The position numbers and the translations under genes were made by a program. DNA of 64,000 nucleotides from Methanobrevibacter sp. GTDB lineage: Archaea > Methanobacteriota > Methanobacteria > Methanobacteriales > Methanobacteriaceae. Location of the stretch: the NCBI GenBank assembly GCA_024689425.1, contig JAILDN010000004.1, forward strand, positions 12,464-76,463, read 5' to 3'. Shown here piece by piece: positions 639-30,430 of this stretch. Under the pieces are notes generated by a model, which did no database searches, was not told where the DNA came from, and saw only the letters and a program-made list of their open reading frames with translations. Numbering within the stretch: position 1 is the stretch's first letter; every line of letters begins with the position of its first letter.

Positions 639-662
639 ATTGTTCGCATAAATACGAACAAT
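639..662. promoter_or_regulatory. Inverted repeat ATTGTTCG-N8-CGAACAAT (core TTCGCA-TAAA-TACGAA), candidate MsvR-type operator
   Basis: Perfect 8-bp arms immediately 5' of a TATA-like TTTATAC (664-670) upstream of nrdD. Confidence 0.5.
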
Positions 663-705
663 GTTTATACAAGTACTGACTAATATTATAATCAAGTGAT
701 TAGTA

Positions 706-721
706 GATAGGGTACCCTATC
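706..721. promoter_or_regulatory. Perfect 16-bp palindrome GATAGGGTACCCTATC in the nrdD leader
   Basis: Read directly. Unusually GC-rich for this intergenic DNA, and flanked by a further GATTAG (698-703)/CTAATC (731-736) pair. Confidence 0.5.
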
Positions 722-765
722 AATCTTATTCTAATCGAATTAAATAATGGAAAATGGTGTGTTAA

Positions 766-3084
766 ATGGAAAAAACTACAGAAATCGCAAATAGTTTAAA
801 TAAATCCGTTAAAATAAACGTAGAAAAAAATAACGGAATTACAGAAAGATTCAGTTATGAAAAGTTATTAAAATCATTAATAATGGTTGAAACCCCATTC
901 TTTGAATCTGATAAAATTGTAGCTACAGTTGTATCATCATTATATGATGGAATAACTACAAAGGAAATTAAAAAAATAGTTTACGAATGTTTAGAAGATA
1001 TTGACGGTGAAATTGCAAACAAATACTTAGCAAGCACCCAGTTAAAAGTACGTACTTCAAGAGATACAATTGAAGCATTTGACTTATCTAAAATTGCAAA
1101 TACTTTAATTCAGGAAACTGGTGCTAGCCAAGAAACTGCTTTTGAAATTGCAACTGAAACCTGGAAAGAACTCAAAAAATTAAATGTTGAATACTTAACC
1201 GCTCCAATGATTAGGGAAATGGTTAACACTAAACTTATTGAATACGGATTAGAAGACTTAAGAAGCCGTTACACTCGTTTAGGTATTCCAGTTTATAACA
1301 TTACCTCTTTAATCGAAAATGGTAACAGAGATAATGCAAATATGATTCACAACCCGGAAAGTATCCATAAACATGTAGCAGACGAAGCATTAAAACAATA
1401 TGCGTTACTTAAAATGCTTCCAGCAAGATTAGCTGACGCACACATGTCCGGGGACATTCACATTCACGATTTGGAATTCTTCGCAGGAAGACCTTTAAAC
1501 TGTATGCAACATGATATCAGAACTTTCATCAAATACGGTCTTAAAGTAGACGGTACAGGTGACCACACCTCCATTGCAGGAGCACCAAACCACATGGAAA
1601 CTTTAATGAACCACACTGGTGAAATCATGCTTGCAGCTCAACAAAACATGTCCGGAGGACAAGGAATGTCCCTTTGGAATGTATTTGTAGCTCCATTTGC
1701 AAGAGGAAGAACTTACGATGAAATTAAACAATCCGTTCAAATGCTTATTTACAACTTAAACATGGCTTACGCAGCCCGTGGATCCCAAGTACCGTTCACA
1801 AGTATGGCACTGGAATTCGGAGTTCCAAACTTCTTGAAAGAAGAAACCGCATACGGACCAAAAGGTCAAGTGGTTGGAACTTACGCTGACTTTGAAAAAG
1901 AAACCAGATTAATTCAAAGAGCATTCACTGAAACTTTACTTGAAGGTGACAATGAAGGAAAACCTCATTTATTCCCAAATACTATCTACACCTTACGTGA
2001 AGAAACAATGACCAGTGAATACGAAGAAGATATCCGTTTAGTTCACGAATTGTCTGCAAAATACGGTTCATCCTACTTTGTAAACATGTTGGCTGATTAC
2101 AGAGGAGACATGGCTAACTACATGGGATGCAGAACCTGTTTACAAGACAACTGGACTGGTGACTGGGATCAAGATTGTTTAAGAACCGGTAACCTTGCAT
2201 ACGTAACTTTAAACCTTCCTAGAATAGGTTACCAATCCAAAGATGAATCCCAAGTATTCGAATACTTAGATGAATACATGGATTTAGCTACTGAAACTTT
2301 AATGCTCAGAAGAGAACAAGGTTTAAAATGTTTAAATGATTTCCACATTTTACCATTCTTGAAACAAAGAGTAGCTGAAGATTCATACTACAGAATACAA
2401 AATTCAACCTTATCATTCGGTTTCGTTGGACTTAACGAAATGTTATTATCATTATTCGGTGAAGGTATTGAAAACCCAGATGCAAACAAATTCGGTATCA
2501 AATGTCTTGAATACATAAATGAAAGAGCAAATCAATTGAAAGATGAAACTGGACTCAGATGGTCTGTTTTACAAACCCCTGCTGAATCCACTGCTTACAG
2601 ATTTGCAACTCTCGATAAAAAACAATTCGGAGACCAAGCTATCGTACAAGGAGACAGCAATGCTAACTACTACACAAACTCTTCTCACGTACCGGTAGAT
2701 ACCAATGCATCATTAATTGAAAAGATCAAAATAGAAGAACAATACCACCCATTAACTCCTGGTGGACACATCTTCCATGCATTCATGGGTGAATCATACT
2801 CTGATCCTGACTCATTAATGAGCTTAACAAATAAAATTGCAAGAAAATCCAATATCGGATTCTGGGCTTACAGCTCAGCTTTAAGTTTCTGTCTTAAATG
2901 TAAAACCTTAATGAAAGGATTAAATAATACTTGTCCTACTTGTGGTGAAAGCGAAGATGTAGAATGGTACGACAGAATCACTGGTTATGTACAACAAGTT
3001 GGTCGTGCAAAATCCGCATCCGGTGGTTGGAACCCAGGTAAACGTCAAGAATTAATTGATAGAAGAAGATTTGAAGATAACTAA
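766..3084 (+). CDS. nrdD: Anaerobic (class III) ribonucleoside-triphosphate reductase with two N-terminal ATP-cone domains
   Basis: HIHDLEF, finger-loop YMGCRT, PAESTAYRFA, YYTNSSH, C-terminal CxxC..CxxC and glycyl-radical motif DRITGY. Confidence 0.96.
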   Translation: MEKTTEIANSLNKSVKINVEKNNGITERFSYEKLLKSLIMVETPFFESDKIVATVVSSLYDGITTKEIKKIVYECLEDIDGEIANKYLASTQLKVRTSRDTIEAFDLSKIANTLIQETGASQETAFEIATETWKELKKLNVEYLTAPMIREMVNTKLIEYGLEDLRSRYTRLGIPVYNITSLIENGNRDNANMIHNPESIHKHVADEALKQYALLKMLPARLADAHMSGDIHIHDLEFFAGRPLNCMQHDIRTFIKYGLKVDGTGDHTSIAGAPNHMETLMNHTGEIMLAAQQNMSGGQGMSLWNVFVAPFARGRTYDEIKQSVQMLIYNLNMAYAARGSQVPFTSMALEFGVPNFLKEETAYGPKGQVVGTYADFEKETRLIQRAFTETLLEGDNEGKPHLFPNTIYTLREETMTSEYEEDIRLVHELSAKYGSSYFVNMLADYRGDMANYMGCRTCLQDNWTGDWDQDCLRTGNLAYVTLNLPRIGYQSKDESQVFEYLDEYMDLATETLMLRREQGLKCLNDFHILPFLKQRVAEDSYYRIQNSTLSFGFVGLNEMLLSLFGEGIENPDANKFGIKCLEYINERANQLKDETGLRWSVLQTPAESTAYRFATLDKKQFGDQAIVQGDSNANYYTNSSHVPVDTNASLIEKIKIEEQYHPLTPGGHIFHAFMGESYSDPDSLMSLTNKIARKSNIGFWAYSSALSFCLKCKTLMKGLNNTCPTCGESEDVEWYDRITGYVQQVGRAKSASGGWNPGKRQELIDRRRFEDN

Positions 3085-10710: not shown

Positions 10711-10900
10711 TTTTTTTGAACCTCTCCGGCTTAAAGAAGCCGGAGATTCTTAGGCCATGCCTATTGTTTCGTCAAAACATTTCCATTCATAATGATATAA
10801 GAATTTGCCTTGACCAATAGGCATGAAATCTACTAAGCATAGCACCGTTGAACCAGCGGCGCGTAGACCTTCGTCTAAAATATTTTTTGCAGCATTAACA
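10696..10900 (-). ncRNA. Predicted TnpB omega/reRNA: tnpB 3' end plus right end, with a flank-derived guide (AAAAACUAUCUUUCUUCAAU); 5' boundary approximate
   Basis: Inferred from established TnpB biology and the TCAA end at 10716; the scaffold was not folded computationally. Confidence 0.5.
10723..10746. repeat. Right-end subterminal hairpin TCTCCGGCTT-AAAG-AAGCCGGAGA
   Basis: Perfect 10-bp stem at the foot of the tnpB stop codon. Confidence 0.9.
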
Positions 10901-12018
10901 TCCCTTTGAAGAATGCTATGGCAGTGCGGACATTCCCACACCCTTTCATCACAATCTAAGTCATGGTTGATTTCTCCACAGACATTGCACTTTTTGCTCG
11001 ATGGAAACCACCGATCGATTTGTATAAATTCACGGCCATACCATTGGGCTTTGTATTTTATCATTTCTATGAGTTTGCCCCATCCAATTTCATGTATGCT
11101 TCTGCTTAAATTGCGGGAACGTATCATTCCTCGGATGTTTAATGTTTCCATGGCTATGAATTCGCAGTGTTTGACTATGTTGTAGGATATTTTATGGTAA
11201 TAATCAAGAACTACGTTGTTTTTCTTGTTTATCCATCGGTGGAGTTTTTTGAGTGTTTTTTTCCAGTTGGATCCATTCTTTTTTTGTCGGGCTATTTTTT
11301 GCTGGTAGTATTGTATTCTTCCGTTTATTCTTTTCAAGTCAGGTTTAGGTATGACTTTGCCATTGGAAAAGGTTAGGAAGTCTGTTAGTCCGACATCTAT
11401 GCCTACATATAATCCAGAGTTCTTGAATTCTTCTCTTGGTTGTATTTTTTCTAGTTCGTAGACTATGCATATGAACCAGCGTCCATTTTCTTTTATGATG
11501 GTGGCTTCCTTGATTTTTCCATCAATGTCTCTTTTATATTTGACTTTGATGTATCCGAGTTTATTTAAGCGGAACAGGTTTTCTTCCCATCTTAAAGTAC
11601 TTTTCATACCTTCTTTGGTAGAATATTCGTTGTTTCTCAATGTAATGGAGATTACGGGATTCTTTTTTAGTGATTTGAAATGTGGACGTCCAGTTCTATT
11701 ATCATAGAATCCGTTGTAGGCTTTTATCAAGCGGTCAGTAGAGGCTTGAAGACATGTGGATTCAGCATTTTTAAGGAATGGTTTTTGTTTTTTAAGGTTT
11801 TTTAATATTTTTTGTGTGTATATGCGATCTACTTCCGATTCTGTGCATATTCCAAGCTTGACTAGGTTTTCACGGTAAATACTTACTTCCAATGTTTTGT
11901 TGAAAACATAACCTGTGGCACGGAAATTGAAATTCAATTCCCCTTCTAAATCCTTATCAGGGAAAAATTCAATTTTATCAGTCAAAATAAAAGTTTTTCC
12001 ACACATAAAAAAACACAC
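10750..12018 (-). CDS. tnpB: TnpB RNA-guided endonuclease (start GTG 12018 or ATG 12006)
   Basis: RuvC-I GIDVG, RuvC-II AMETL, zinc finger SSKKCNVCG..WECPHC, RuvC-III RDVNAAKNI; P.FKS motif. Confidence 0.95.
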   Translation of the reverse strand: MCFFMCGKTFILTDKIEFFPDKDLEGELNFNFRATGYVFNKTLEVSIYRENLVKLGICTESEVDRIYTQKILKNLKKQKPFLKNAESTCLQASTDRLIKAYNGFYDNRTGRPHFKSLKKNPVISITLRNNEYSTKEGMKSTLRWEENLFRLNKLGYIKVKYKRDIDGKIKEATIIKENGRWFICIVYELEKIQPREEFKNSGLYVGIDVGLTDFLTFSNGKVIPKPDLKRINGRIQYYQQKIARQKKNGSNWKKTLKKLHRWINKKNNVVLDYYHKISYNIVKHCEFIAMETLNIRGMIRSRNLSRSIHEIGWGKLIEMIKYKAQWYGREFIQIDRWFPSSKKCNVCGEINHDLDCDERVWECPHCHSILQRDVNAAKNILDEGLRAAGSTVLCLVDFMPIGQGKFLYHYEWKCFDETIGMA

Positions 12019-12122
12019 ACATCCTTTTATTATTATTATTTCATTTTTTTTTATAAGAACATTAAATTAACTACCATTCTTATAAATAAAAATTAATAAG
12101 ATAATATATAAAGAAATTATCC

Positions 12123-12141
12123 AAGAGCATTTGAAAAGTAA
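12123..12141 (-). promoter_or_regulatory. Dispersed 19-bp motif, copy B (18/19), inside the IS upstream of tnpB
   Basis: Minus strand TTACTTTTCAAATGCTCTT, then 10 nt, then TTTATATA. Confidence 0.6.
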
Positions 12142-12193
12142 TATTTAAATAAAAACTAAAAAAAATATTCGAATGTCCTTAAAGTGCAATTCA

Positions 12194-12217
12194 TCTCTGG
12201 CTTAAAGAAGCCAGAGA
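12194..12217. repeat. Left-end subterminal hairpin TCTCTGGCTT-AAAG-AAGCCAGAGA with outer GTGCAA/TTGCAC stem
   Basis: Differs from the right-end hairpin by one compensatory C-G to T-A pair; outer arms at 12184-12189 and 12222-12227. Confidence 0.9.
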
Positions 12218-12348
12218 ATTCTTGCACAACAATGTTAAACTATCCTTATTTTTAATTTAATTAATTATTGTAAAAACCACCTTCTTTTAAAAAAATTTAT
12301 ATAACAATAGTTATATAAGAATAAATACAATTATCATGAGGGTCATCT

Positions 12349-13179
12349 ATGGAATTTATAAGAGAAAGTGAAGTTATTCAATGGAAAAACGGAGAATACA
12401 AAACAATTAAAGAAAATAGTGTAGAGGATGAGTATACATATTTGTTTATTGATTATTTGCCCCCACGTAAATTCTCAACATACCCCAAAGATTTGAAAGA
12501 CTTTGCTATAGGATACTGTCTGGGTGAAGGCTTAATTAAAGATTATTCTGACATTGAATCAATAGAATGTGATGGAACAAATGTTTTGGTTAGCACAAAA
12601 CTTAGCCATGACCCTGAAGAAGATTTGGAGCAGGACGGAATAGTTCAGGAGCGAAAAGGCAATTGTGAACATGCCTGTGTCTGCAGATTGCTTGAATATC
12701 AGGGTGTGAACTCAGATAATGCAGGAGGCATAAGATCAGAACTCAAAAGCATTGAAAAAAATACCTCTGACTTAAAAATAGACGCAACCCAAATTATTAA
12801 AGACATTGAACACCTGACTGATGAAGCAAAAATATGGCAAAAAACCGCAGGAGTCCATGTTGCACAATTGAAATATGAAGACAATACAATCATCCGTGAA
12901 GATGTAAGCAGACACGTTGCAGTAGACAAAGTGATTGGAGCAGCATCAAAAGAAGGATATGACTTTTCCAAATGTTATATTTCATACAGTGGGAGAATGC
13001 CTGCTGATATGCTGATAAAAGTAATCAGAGTTGGAATTCCAATAATTATCTCAAATGCGGCACCGGCATCATCAGGTATTGATGTAGCTAACGCAGGAAA
13101 TATTACCATAATCGGATTTGTCCGAGACAACAGATTTACAGTCTACACATCTCCAGAACGTGTAAACTTGGAAAAATAG
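12349..13179 (+). CDS. fdhD: Formate dehydrogenase accessory sulfurtransferase FdhD
   Basis: TAGVHVA, REDVSRHVAVDKVIG, SGRMPADMLIK, TIIGFVR. Confidence 0.9.
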   Translation: MEFIRESEVIQWKNGEYKTIKENSVEDEYTYLFIDYLPPRKFSTYPKDLKDFAIGYCLGEGLIKDYSDIESIECDGTNVLVSTKLSHDPEEDLEQDGIVQERKGNCEHACVCRLLEYQGVNSDNAGGIRSELKSIEKNTSDLKIDATQIIKDIEHLTDEAKIWQKTAGVHVAQLKYEDNTIIREDVSRHVAVDKVIGAASKEGYDFSKCYISYSGRMPADMLIKVIRVGIPIIISNAAPASSGIDVANAGNITIIGFVRDNRFTVYTSPERVNLEK

Positions 13180-13184
13180 ATGAT

Positions 13185-13940
13185 TTAAAGTTCATCTAAA
13201 AAAAATGAACTTAAATCCAAAAGGTCAAATGTTAATATTTTTGGGGCTGAAGTGACTTTTCCAACACCAGTGATTACTTTAAAAGCTTCAAAAGCTTCTA
13301 AACAACCAATTAAATTAGGAGTAGGACCAATTACCGGTGGAACTCCTGAAGTTACATTTTTTAAATCATCAATAACGTCTTCTGTTAATTCTTTACCTAC
13401 AGAAGGTAAATTAAACATTTCTTCATATGTTATATCCCCATCAGGTAAAAAAACAGATGTTTGACCCATAGTTCCATGAATTGCACCATGAATATAAGGA
13501 ATTCCTTTAACTTTAGCCTCTCTTGATACAATAACCCTGGTTAAAACATTGTCCAAAGCATCTATGACAATATCGGAATCGCCTATTACCTTACTTATAT
13601 TAGTCTCGTCAACATGTTCATTAAAAGTGGTTACTTTAACATAAGGATTGATTAATCTAACTTTTTCTTTAGCTACATCACTTTTAACGAGGCCTAAATC
13701 AGATATTGCAGCCAATGTTTGTCTGTTTAAATTTGACAAATCAAAAGCATCTTTATCAACTAAAACAAGTTCACCAATACCCATTCTAGCTAACATTTCA
13801 ATAGTTTCACCACCGATTCCTCCACAACCGATAACCGTTATTTTAGCATCTTTAAATCTTTGCTGTTCGCTTCTTGTTACAACACTCATTTGTCTGGATA
13901 TTATTTCCCAATATCCATCACCTATGTATCTTGTTGGCAA
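13185..13940 (-). CDS. ThiF/MoeB/HesA family adenylyltransferase (E1-like)
   Basis: VIGCGGIGG, DKDAFDLSNLNRQ, DALDN, IHGA. Confidence 0.9.
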   Translation of the reverse strand: MPTRYIGDGYWEIISRQMSVVTRSEQQRFKDAKITVIGCGGIGGETIEMLARMGIGELVLVDKDAFDLSNLNRQTLAAISDLGLVKSDVAKEKVRLINPYVKVTTFNEHVDETNISKVIGDSDIVIDALDNVLTRVIVSREAKVKGIPYIHGAIHGTMGQTSVFLPDGDITYEEMFNLPSVGKELTEDVIDDLKNVTSGVPPVIGPTPNLIGCLEAFEAFKVITGVGKVTSAPKILTFDLLDLSSFFLDEL

Positions 13941-27066: not shown

Positions 27067-27768
27067 ATGTCAGAAAGAGGAAAATTATTCGGAATTGGTG
27101 TAGGACCAGGAGATACAGAATTATTAACATTGAAAGCTGCTAGAATTTTAGAAACAGTCCCTGTTGTTTTTTCACCAAAATCTTCCAAAGAAAAAGAGAG
27201 TATTGCACTTTCAATAGTAAAACCAATAATTGAAAAAAGAAAAGATTTTAAAAAGTTAATGGTTGTAGAACCGATATTTCCAATGATTGAAGATGAAAAA
27301 GAATTAGAAAGATGTTGGACATCTGCTTCAGAAATGATTGCACAATATCTCGATACCGGACGTGACGTGGCATTTATAACTCTTGGAGATCCATCAATAT
27401 TTAGTACTTACTCTTATGTGCAAAAGAAATTAAAAGGAGCATATGAAATTGAAACTGTTCCTGGAATAACTTCATTTACAGCTTGTGCAGCTGCTCGTAA
27501 CGAAGCGTTAGTTGAAAAAAATGATATTTTAAGCATTATCCCTAAAATTGATGACAGATTAGATGATGTTATGGATTACAGTAATGCAATAGCTTTAATG
27601 AAAGCATCAAGAAATATGAGAAAATTAGAACTAAAAATTGAAAACAACAAACGTACAACCGACATTTATTCAGTGCAAAACTGTACTCGTGAAAATGAGA
27701 AAATTATTGAAGGATTTTCAAAAGATAAGCCTTATCTTACAACCACAATTATTAAGTTAGATGATTAA
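27067..27768 (+). CDS. cobI: Precorrin-2/cobalt-factor II C20-methyltransferase
   Basis: GIGVGPGDTELLTLKA, FITLGDPSIFSTY, VPGITSF. Confidence 0.9.
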   Translation: MSERGKLFGIGVGPGDTELLTLKAARILETVPVVFSPKSSKEKESIALSIVKPIIEKRKDFKKLMVVEPIFPMIEDEKELERCWTSASEMIAQYLDTGRDVAFITLGDPSIFSTYSYVQKKLKGAYEIETVPGITSFTACAAARNEALVEKNDILSIIPKIDDRLDDVMDYSNAIALMKASRNMRKLELKIENNKRTTDIYSVQNCTRENEKIIEGFSKDKPYLTTTIIKLDD

Positions 27769-28535
27769 TTTGATTTGAAGCGCCGTGGTTCAACTTCAAA
27801 AACACATTTTCCATCACCCATAGTATAGCATTGGATTTCTATTACACTTACTGGCTGGTTGAAGTATTCGCTGAATAATGCTTCAAGAATTCCAGTATCT
27901 AAAAAACATGCAGGTTTACCTGTTTTTGGTAATAATTGACATTCGAAACAGTCTAAAGAAGTTATTTTTATTACGCTTCCTATTTCAAATGAAAGTTTGC
28001 CTAGGCCTTTTGTTTGCCAGAAATTTGAAATGTTTTCTAAAAATATCTCTAAATCATCATCATAAACAGAATCAAATAAAGCATTGCCAATGCGTACACC
28101 GGTAGCTTGTAAAACAGGATCAATATTAATTCCTTCCTGAATAAGCATTGATCTTAATGTGTGGAACAATAAAACAGTGAAATCTCCATCATCATTAACG
28201 ATATTTTCAATTAAATAATCCTTTTGAGTCTCTTCAATTTCTTTTTGCTCAGAAAGATTTACAGAACCCAAATATTTGGAGTTGAGATAGAAAATTTTTT
28301 TTCTATTGTCTTTAGGATGAACTTTAAAAGAAACAATACCTGATTCCCTCAAACCTTTCAAATGAACAGAAATAGTAGATTTTGATTTACCTGTGTTAGA
28401 AACAATTTCATCAAATTCCATCTCACTACCCCTAAGCATTTCAAGAATAGTTAACTTTACTGGACTTTTTACAACATTTACTCCAATATTTTTTTCTGGA
28501 TTTGAAAAAATTTGAATTGGTTTTTCGTCACCCAT
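27765..28535 (-). CDS. msvR: ArsR-type HTH plus V4R-domain redox regulator (MsvR-like)
   Basis: N-terminal wHTH (KSKSTISVHLKGL); V4R domain with Cys cluster DCFEC..PACF..QCY..KC; divergent from fprA as established for MsvR. Confidence 0.8.
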   Translation of the reverse strand: MGDEKPIQIFSNPEKNIGVNVVKSPVKLTILEMLRGSEMEFDEIVSNTGKSKSTISVHLKGLRESGIVSFKVHPKDNRKKIFYLNSKYLGSVNLSEQKEIEETQKDYLIENIVNDDGDFTVLLFHTLRSMLIQEGINIDPVLQATGVRIGNALFDSVYDDDLEIFLENISNFWQTKGLGKLSFEIGSVIKITSLDCFECQLLPKTGKPACFLDTGILEALFSEYFNQPVSVIEIQCYTMGDGKCVFEVEPRRFKSN

Positions 28536-28632: not shown

Positions 28633-28660
28633 AACTGTTCAATTAAAAAAGCGAACAGTT
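28633..28660. promoter_or_regulatory. Inverted repeat AACTGTTC-N12-GAACAGTT between msvR and fprA
   Basis: Perfect 8-bp arms upstream of TATATATA (about 28677-28684); a TTCGTA half-site lies at 28721-28726. Confidence 0.5.
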
Positions 28661-28759
28661 TCTTAAAAGAAAATCTATATATATTCACATACACAAAAAT
28701 TACTATAAGTCTGTATGTCATTCGTATAGATTGAAACAAATTTTATTCGAGGAATAATT

Positions 28760-29986
28760 ATGAAAGCTAATGCCAAAAAAATAGCAGAAGGAGTATATTG
28801 GATTGGTGTTCTTGACTGGGATTTAAGAACATACCATGGATATACCTTAGATGGTACCACATACAACGCATACATTGTATTTGGTGAAGATAAAGTAGCA
28901 ATTATCGATAATGCTTACCCTGGAAAAACCGCGGAAATGATGGCACGTATCGATGACGCATTTGCTCAAGAAGGCAGAGATGTAGCAGTAGACTACATTA
29001 TCCAAAACCATGTAGAAAAAGACCACTCCGGTGTTTTATATGATTTACATAAAAGATTCCCGGAAGCACCAATTTACTGTAGTAAAATTGCTGTAAACGG
29101 TCTATTAAAACACTACCCTAACTTAGAAGGTGCAGAATTTATTACTGTTGGTACTGGAGACACATTAGATGTTGGTGGAAGAACTTTAGCATTCTTAGAT
29201 GCATTCTTACTCCACTGGCCAGACAGTATGTTTACATTACTTGCAGATGAAACTGGAATTTTATTCCCTAACGATGCATTTGGTCAACACTTATGTTTCA
29301 CACAAAGATTTAGTGATGAAATCCCTGAATACGTGTTAATGGATGCAGCACAAAAATTCTATGCAAACTTAATTACTCCACTTTCAAAATTAGTGCTCAA
29401 AAAATTAAATGAAGTAGTTGAATTAGGATTACTCGAACAAATTAAAATGATTGCACCATCACACGGTCAAATTTGGACTGACCCAATGCAAATTATTGGA
29501 GCTTATCAAAACTGGGCAACTGGTGTATGTGAAGATAAAATCACTATCATTTACGATACAATGCACTATTCAACCCAAAAAATGGCTCATGAAATTGCAG
29601 AAGGTGCAATGTCTGAAGGATATGATGTTGAAATTTTCTTCTTACACGAAGATGAAAGATCAGAAATTGTTAAAAGTATATTAACAAGTAAAGGAATCGC
29701 AATTGGTGATCCAACAATAAATGATGTACCATATCCAAGTATTGGGGACATCATGTACTACTTGAAAGGTCTTTTATTCAACAGAACAGGTATTGAAAGA
29801 AAAGCCGTTACCTTTGGTTCAATGGGTGGAAGAGGAGGATCTCCTGAAAAACTCGCTGAAGAATTAGGTAACTGTGGATTTGATATCGTGGACACCCAAG
29901 AAATTTACTTTGTACCAAATGAAGATGAAAATGAAGCAAGCTATGAACTTGGTAAAAAATTAGCGCAAGCTTGTAAAGAATTATAA
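28760..29986 (+). CDS. fprA: Flavodiiron protein FprA (F420H2 oxidase)
   Basis: [39 protein letters not shown]; flavodoxin domain. Confidence 0.94.
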
Positions 29987-30016
29987 AATCAAAAGATTAA
30001 ATGGAGATGATTTAAA

Positions 30017-30430
30017 ATGGTAAAATACGAACATGAAATCGGAATTACAAAAGGAACACCTGTAGAAAACTATGTTGCAGGAAACTTTGAAGGAGAAACT
30101 AATGAAGTGGGTATCTATTTAGCTATGTCCAGACAAGCTTCCAGAGAAGGTTACGGAGAATTAGCTGAAGTATTCAAAAGATTAGCATGGGAAGAAGCTG
30201 AACATGCTGCAAGATTCTGTGAAATGAACGGAATTATTAAAGATGACCTCAAAGCTAACATAGAATGGATGATGGGCGGAGAAAAAATGGCTAACGCTGA
30301 AAAAAGAGAAGCTTCCGAAAAAGCTCAAGAAGCCGGAATTGAAACCGCTGCTGATTTCTTCAGAGAAAGTTCCAAAGACGAAGGTCGTCACTACAAAATC
30401 TTAGAAGGTATTTTAGAAAGATACTTCTAA
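30017..30430 (+). CDS. Rubrerythrin-like (ferritin-fold) protein without a rubredoxin domain
   Basis: Di-iron motifs GETNE, EEAEHA, EKMAN, DEGRH. Confidence 0.85.

Follow-up and report, generated by a model that had tools for sequence, protein, structure and literature searches.

A conserved inverted repeat at the nrdD promoter of Methanobrevibacter is a predicted operator of the redox-sensing regulator MsvR

The window, that is, the whole 64-kb stretch of DNA analysed here, stems from a rumen member of the genus Methanobrevibacter that falls in the M. millerae/thaueri group. Beyond the gene for the large PolD subunit, of which it contains the 3' end, the window carries nrdD and its promoter region, for which the following features were recorded.

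639..662, no strand assigned: palindromic operator, probable MsvR-type box, ATTGTTCG-N8-CGAACAAT (direct read, weight matrix and orthologous sites in 57/79 nrdD loci)
643..648, + strand: left half-site TTCGCA, one mismatch from the ideal TTCGTA (direct read)
653..658, + strand: right half-site TACGAA, extended form TACGAACA at 653-660 (direct read and matrix)
655..663, + strand: expected position of the BRE (TFB-recognition element), occupied by the promoter-proximal operator arm CGAACAATG (deduced from adjacency to TATA)
664..670, + strand: putative TATA box TTTATAC (sequence only; a TATA-like hexamer lies at +2 to +7 nt after 97/97 operators)
698..736, + strand: leader stem-loop GATTAG..GATAGG-GTAC-CCTATC..CTAATC (palindrome and predicted fold)
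756..759, + strand: ribosome-binding site GGTG (invariant across alignments)
766..3084, + strand: nrdD, class III (glycyl-radical) ribonucleotide reductase (RNR) with an N-terminal ATP-cone (Pfam NRDD and ATP-cone, TIGR02487)

The gene at 766-3084 encodes a class III RNR, as originally predicted. Its product carries the NRDD catalytic domain (PF13597, 564.7 bits) and scores 564.8 bits against TIGR02487, for which the cutoff is 326, while the C-terminus (...CLKCKTLMKGLNNTCPTCG...RITGY...) contains both the Cys4 cluster and the RITGY glycyl-radical motif. Approximately 100 nt upstream of the nrdD ATG (766), the segment 639-662 reads ATTGTTCGCATAAATACGAACAAT, a 24-base perfect inverted repeat consisting of two 8-nt arms and an 8-nt spacer. 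The original prediction had described this repeat as lying directly 5' of a TATA-like box, with the core TTCGCA-TAAA-TACGAA, and re-reading of the DNA confirmed both the coordinates and the sequence. The stretch at 643-658, TTCGCATAAATACGAA, conforms to the published definition of an MsvR box, TTCG-N7-9-CGAA, and differs from the ideal box by a single mismatch, as had been noted, in the left half-site (TTCGCA for TTCGTA), the right half-site TACGAA being exact. Among relatives, 94% of the proximal sites have T at the deviating position, 647, as does a near-identical metatranscriptome contig.

With the nrdD transcription start expected near 694, the operator would span about -55 to -32. Public RNA data consist of assembled contigs only, which cross the whole spacer, possibly contain DNA and give no readable 5' end. 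Since the transcription start is thus unmapped, the overlap of the operator with the BRE is a prediction; on this basis, the operator would lie on the core promoter (BRE/TATA region), where the published MsvR boxes are also located.

The proposed regulator is encoded 27 kb away from nrdD, at a locus with the following features.

27765..28535, - strand: msvR, redox-sensing regulator with an ArsR-type HTH and a V4R domain (Pfam HTH_5 and V4R; NCBIfam NF053755)
28633..28660, no strand assigned: AACTGTTC-N12-GAACAGTT, MsvR-like half-sites with non-canonical spacing in the msvR-fpaA spacer (direct read)
28721..28737, + strand: TTCGTATAGATTGAAAC, degenerate fpaA-proximal MsvR box (comparison with M. 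millerae TTCGTATGGATTCGAAC, two substitutions away)
28760..30430, + strand: fpaA (F420H2 oxidase-type flavoprotein) and a rubrerythrin-like gene, divergent from msvR (ORFs and Pfam)

The gene at 27765-28535, initially described as msvR-like, encodes a true MsvR: the product matches the MsvR equivalog NF053755 with 307.7 bits against a cutoff of 220, contains the HTH_5 and V4R domains, and carries the cysteines C196/C199 (in CX2CX3P, with P203), C210, C236 and C244, all of which are invariant in the alignment. The recognition helix is likewise invariant across clades. The spacing of C210/C236/C244 (26/8) is that of the functionally tested cysteines C206/C232/C240 of Methanosarcina acetivorans MsvR, and CX2CX3P is the variant described for homologues, of the Methanobacteriales type CX2CX3(H/P) (PMC3729527). 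The arrangement of msvR, fpaA and the rubrerythrin gene matches the msvR/fpaA-rlp-rub locus of M. thermautotrophicus as far as this is outlined in PMC3729527. The divergent fpaA neighbourhood is not universal in the genus, as thaueri-type and YE315 msvR loci have other neighbours.

The msvR-fpaA spacer of the window contains the TGTTC/GAACA arms and the TTCGTA half-site that had been reported for it, at 28633-28660 and 28721-28726, respectively. The arms are kept as TGTTCG-N10/11-TGAACA in relatives of the M. millerae clade, and the canonical TTCG-N7-9-CGAA is absent from the window's own spacer. Because the fpaA-proximal box is degenerate, the best MsvR-type site in the window is the one at nrdD, not at msvR/fpaA. 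A relaxed search of the window with GTTCR-N5-11-YGAAC found matches nowhere but in the nrdD operator, in the msvR-fpaA spacer and, at 13190, between the ends of two convergent genes; the last of these was discarded as a regulator site, given its position and the lack of a promoter there.

We compared the nrdD site with MsvR boxes characterized in vitro. The MsvR box is TTCGTAN4TACGAA in M. thermautotrophicus, with TTCGN7-9CGAA tolerated, so that the motif given in the original prediction was accurate (PMC3729527). Mutation of either box abolishes MsvR binding, and the location of the boxes coincides with BRE/TATA or with the transcription start (PMC3729527). A 50-bp oligonucleotide of the M. 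acetivorans msvR promoter (PmsvR), TATTTCAAACATGATTATTCGTAGTCACGCGAACGTTTTATATATTCAAA, was shifted by MsvR in EMSA (Isom et al. 2013, PMC3729527 supplement), and the validated operator within it is TTCGTAGTCACGCGAAC-G-TTTTATATA, in the context ...ATTATTCGTAGTCACGCGAACGTTTTATATAT..., with box B overlapping the BRE (PMC3729527). This operator shares with the nrdD operators the form TTCG-N8-CGAAC, the left half TTCGTA and AT-rich flanks. It ends 1-3 nt before TATA with its proximal box over the BRE, and the layout at nrdD is alike, CGAAC-AAT-TTATATAC. The two systems differ in that the M. acetivorans operator controls msvR and not an RNR gene, and belongs to another order with a distantly related MsvR, while the nrdD site is a predicted one. 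The ideal box of M. thermautotrophicus, represented by boxes 1-3 of PmsvR/fpaA, equals the nrdD consensus (Karr 2010, as relayed in PMC3729527), and its three-box layout, in the outline given there, resembles the msvR promoters of Methanobrevibacter. The targets that PMC3729527 mentions for M. thermautotrophicus are oxidative-stress genes and msvR itself, and the nrdD promoters of Methanobacterium-like species lack a full palindrome. Thus, in both consensus and N8 spacing the nrdD site agrees with the published boxes. A match to the motif is insufficient in itself and context matters, since rpoK contains a TTCG-N8-CGAA to which the M. acetivorans protein failed to bind (PMC3729527).

Within the window alone, the motif is statistically unremarkable, TTCG-N7-9-CGAA being found once against 0.81 expected. 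Palindromes are also common in this AT-rich DNA (31.5% G+C): perfect 8-nt-arm palindromes numbered 62 against 28 expected from shuffles, and those with at least three G/C per arm occupied 14 positions against 4 expected. A comparative test was therefore needed, and the significance of the operator derives from conservation across species. We collected 80 nrdD loci from one-genome-per-species assemblies of Methanobacteriaceae, of which 79 had enough upstream DNA; the sampled NrdD proteins are 72-97% identical to that of the window. An exact TTCG-N8-CGAA was found within 300 nt upstream of the nrdD start in 57 of the 79 loci, compared with roughly 0.4% expected per 300 nt, and 40 loci carry two copies. 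Although N7-9 was allowed, the spacer is exactly 8 nt in 97/97 sites, and in all 97 a TATA-like hexamer follows CGAA by 2-7 nt. Comparison of the 90 distinct site sequences revealed no variation in the TTCG/CGAA cores and 98-99% conservation of the G and C that flank them (C after CGAA in 89/90), with near-random bases at the central spacer positions. The overall consensus, TGTTCGTA-N4-TACGAACA, is equal to the published ideal MsvR box (TTCGTA-N4-TACGAA). Proximal sites follow a-TGTTCGTA-tnaA-tACGAACAAT-aatTATAC and distal sites TGTTCG-nntcAAGA-CGAACAaT-TTATATAc, the distal copy also being given as TTCGnnnCAAGACGAA. The site is present in rumen species as well as in the human-gut M. smithii/intestini group. 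The conservation upstream of nrdD that the original prediction called for thus extends across Methanobrevibacter, with fixed N8 spacing and invariant cores, and the segment 639-662 is almost certainly a real, conserved transcription-factor operator.

Several variants of this arrangement were observed. In 40 of the 79 loci (L011-L063, 75-240 nt upstream of nrdD), the operator together with its own TATA forms a module present in tandem duplicate, with the two modules 55-87 bp apart (mostly 55-60, sometimes 78-87); the clade of the window is single-copy. Termite-gut lineages have variant sites such as TGTTAG-N8-CGAACA, and in two termite-associated loci (L056 and L070) short tandem repeats (GTAGTTGGTATTAGGTTTTTATTG and TAATATAARG) replace the operator in the 200 nt upstream of nrdD. 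The Methanobacterium-like nrdD promoters (L073-L079, 150-200 nt upstream) retain just one (A)CGAAC(A/T) half-site, separated from TATA by 12-17 nt, some with an additional GTTCG or TTCGTC 18-30 nt further upstream. This half-site may be an older or differently spaced form of the same control.

A weight matrix built from the nrdD operators (threshold 12 bits, maximum 36 bits) was used for scanning. Over 640 kb of nrdD loci, matches of at least 12 bits occurred only upstream of nrdD, except for one of 12.5 bits at -754 in locus L072. The sole match in the 64-kb window was that at 639, with 31.9 of the 36 bits. For the reciprocal analysis, msvR loci were gathered by exact-protein look-up (13 loci) and from metagenomes (67 loci), yielding 58 non-redundant upstream regions. 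When the matrix derived from nrdD only was run over 660 kb of msvR loci, it returned 10 matches of at least 12 bits, all located in msvR(-fpaA) intergenic regions and from four independent lineages; the reversed-sequence control gave one match.

The msvR upstream regions of the genus are themselves rich in related elements. ACGAA-N3-TTCGTA was found in 50 of the 58 non-redundant Methanobrevibacter regions, approximately 145 nt before the ATG, and the most conserved block, TAyGAACTATTTTATnTnnTTTTAAACGAACAGTTCGTATTTTT, is made of the extended half-sites GTTCGTA and (A)CGAAC(A) of the nrdD type. A full TTCG-N7/8-CGAA lies upstream of msvR in several lineages: the complete box GTTCGTAATATACGAAC occurs in thaueri-type msvR regions, including locus L088, which shares a contig with nrdD locus L041; TTCGTTTTAAACGAA and TTCGTTTTAAAACGAA occur in other lineages; and in M. 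millerae TTCGTATGGATTCGAAC adjoins the fpaA start. Boxes suited to autoregulation are therefore found upstream of msvR in the genus, and in part in the window's own spacer, with its N12 arms and degenerate box. In the element that dominates the msvR promoters the half-sites are everted (CGAA-N3-TTCG), while those at nrdD are inverted with N8. To judge from the sequences, this everted element would fit the three-box layout described for M. thermautotrophicus, yet a second, related factor would also be compatible with it.

Taking these results together, we propose that the segment 639-662 is the operator of a dimeric factor at the nrdD promoter, most probably MsvR, and hence an unrecognized MsvR target; we assign this reading a probability of about 0.6. 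As to the factor itself, it is quite likely that the MsvR encoded 27 kb away occupies the site. Wherever the MsvR-operator idea made a prediction open to testing at the sequence level, the prediction held, and comparative genomics supports the idea without proving it. Several observations weigh against this reading: the window's own msvR-fpaA spacer lacks the canonical box, the dominant msvR-promoter element is everted and unlike the inverted N8 site at nrdD, the rpoK site was left unbound by M. acetivorans MsvR (PMC3729527), the Methanobacterium-like nrdD promoters have a single CGAAC half-site only, and, for repression in particular, it would be physiologically awkward to damp the sole evident RNR while the cells grow normally in anoxia. 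If MsvR is the factor, the nrdD site would represent a new target of a known regulator family and not a new kind of system.

Oxygen irreversibly cleaves activated NrdD at the glycyl radical, which makes an oxygen-responsive switch on nrdD physiologically logical. The promoter-proximal arm CGAAC(AAT) is predicted to occupy the BRE, which TFB must contact; with this arm on the BRE, bound MsvR would exclude TFB/TBP. A dimer covering roughly -55 to -32 would thereby repress nrdD, by analogy with both characterized msvR promoters. Reduced MsvR would thus keep nrdD partially repressed in anoxic growth, oxidation by O2 or H2O2 would lead to derepression, and derepression would replace the NrdD cleaved by oxygen at its glycyl radical. 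In the 40 loci with tandem operator-TATA modules, both promoters would be under the same control. Since MsvR binds or represses in its reduced form and is released or altered once its V4R cysteines are oxidized (PMC3729527), repression followed by derepression is the most likely logic; given MsvR, we consider relief of repression by oxidation fairly probable by analogy with the published promoters.

As the nrdD operator matches an MsvR site in both sequence and position, DNA-precursor synthesis is probably wired to oxygen stress in these organisms. Experiments have placed msvR itself and the fpaA-rlp-rub operon under MsvR control, a list that nrdD would extend if the reading is correct; in strict anaerobes, the synthesis of DNA precursors, and with it replication and repair, would then be tied to oxygen exposure. 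The table of predicted MsvR targets for M. acetivorans contains no RNR, and our literature search found no paper linking MsvR or oxygen to RNR expression in methanogens. The collection of about 90 natural operator variants defines which bases are important, and should make the MsvR regulon easier to predict in the methanogens that matter for enteric methane and the gut microbiome.

The alternative that survives best accepts the operator as real and assigns it to another factor dedicated to nrdD, either an archaeal analogue of NrdR or an MsvR paralogue, with the likeness to the MsvR box being coincidental or due to a related winged-helix protein. High motif scores confined to nrdD promoters, the inverted N8 site at nrdD against the everted CGAA-N3-TTCG at msvR, and the missing canonical box in the window's own msvR promoter would all fit such a factor. 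Yet the nrdD consensus has the sequence and the spacing of the validated MsvR box and stands next to TATA as that box does, and in 660 kb of msvR loci the nrdD matrix finds only msvR(-fpaA) spacers. Bacterial NrdR offers the closest parallel in logic, that of a dedicated repressor of dNTP synthesis whose palindromic and often duplicated operator overlaps RNR promoters. NrdR consists of a Zn-ribbon and an ATP-cone, and senses nucleotides through the latter and not redox. The NrdR box given by Rodionov and Gelfand in 2005 is reportedly acaCwAtATaTwGtgt, 16 bp in length and in tandem about 31 bp apart. The nrdD site is unlike this box, and the paired nrdD sites are 55-87 bp apart, each with its own TATA. 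Neither an NrdR-like gene nor any ATP-cone protein besides NrdD was detected in the 64-kb window, and within that scope the nrdD operator shows neither the NrdR box nor the corresponding regulon. On balance, a dedicated factor other than MsvR appears unlikely.

A second alternative retains MsvR and reverses its role: reduced MsvR centred at about -43 would recruit TFB/TBP in anoxia, and oxidation would stop the synthesis of an enzyme that oxygen is about to destroy. Expression of nrdD is required in normal anoxic growth, in agreement with an activator, and the operator is centred about 17 bp before the middle of TATA, where certain activators of archaea, such as Ptr2 and TFB-RF1, also act. Activation would also match the earlier idea of dNTP synthesis coupled to oxidative stress. 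Against this, the proximal arm abuts TATA and covers the BRE instead of lying upstream of it, and the published activities of MsvR are all repressive, through occlusion of BRE/TATA or of the transcription start (PMC3729527). We therefore regard activation by MsvR as doubtful.

Two more far-reaching possibilities can be considered together and are, as a pair, about equally doubtful. Either an undiscovered RNR-specific regulator of archaea, a counterpart of NrdR, binds half-sites that are merely MsvR-like, or the MsvR of gut and rumen Methanobrevibacter has been rewired as a master switch of DNA-precursor supply, in which the tandem modules would gate replication by redox and the CGAAC arm would double as the BRE, with MsvR and TFB competing for it.

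The weakest alternative takes the palindrome to be a hairpin in RNA or DNA that might, for instance, terminate or stabilize the upstream polD transcript, or else a chance palindrome in AT-rich DNA, and is highly improbable: as RNA it folds at -12.3 kcal/mol (z = -6), metatranscriptome contigs cross the spacer and 8-nt-arm palindromes are frequent in the window, but the link to TATA is constant in all 97 sites, 57 of 79 loci carry the site against the roughly 0.4% expected, and covariation is absent. Specifically, none of the ten possible pairs covaried over the 90 sites; the five core pairs are constant (one of the 90 sites differs, at a G/C pair), the variable positions are unpaired in 29-51 of the 90, and structure measures of the operator did not clearly exceed those of shuffled controls. 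The RNA-hairpin reading was rejected because the arms are invariant and do not covary; a chance palindrome would fit the single sequence and is ruled out by the conservation. The lack of covariation, together with the conserved identity of the bases at fixed spacing and TATA distance, points to the site of a dimeric DNA-binding protein.

Several further observations were made in the course of the analysis. The nrdD leader contains a stem-loop at 698-736, composed of the outer stem GATTAG/CTAATC and the inner stem GATAGG/CCTATC. It is kept in relatives with a long leader, as GAGAG/CTCTC in other clades for the GATAG/CTATC of the window, and one stem position switches from GC to UA (28 versus 7 sequences). 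A T-run follows the stem-loop in close relatives, and the short-leader clade lacks the stem-loop. Its fold was no more stable than that of shuffled sequences (z = -0.4), and an Rfam search of 540-800 returned a single sub-threshold chance match, leaving the stem-loop without an Rfam family.

Among the msvR loci, a block of approximately 45 nt, (A)GTATCTGAACTTTTTATAAGTTTTATACGAATTGTTCGTATTTTT, with a three-box layout like that of the msvR-promoter element, was found at L085:5620-5670, L088:200-250, L090:360-410 and L090:3180-3230. These blocks are intergenic, upstream of genes for an alcohol dehydrogenase, an unknown protein and an adhesin-like protease, and could mark additional targets of MsvR or be copies of a small dispersed repeat. 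One metagenome contig (L091:1-11500) contains two msvR copies in inverted orientation, each with methyltransferase and helicase genes, which is either a real inverted duplication or a two-strain assembly chimera.

Elsewhere in the window, the segment 13190-13210, GTTCATCTAAAAAAAATGAAC, lies at the 5-nt gap of convergent FdhD-like (ending at 13179) and ThiF/MoeB-like (ending at 13185) genes, and is probably a shared terminator hairpin. In the region 10723-12220, the ORF at 10750-12018 (- strand) looks like TnpB/OrfB of the IS200/IS605 family, and is flanked by G+C-rich hairpins, TCTCCGGCTT at 10723 and TCTCTGGCTT at 12194.
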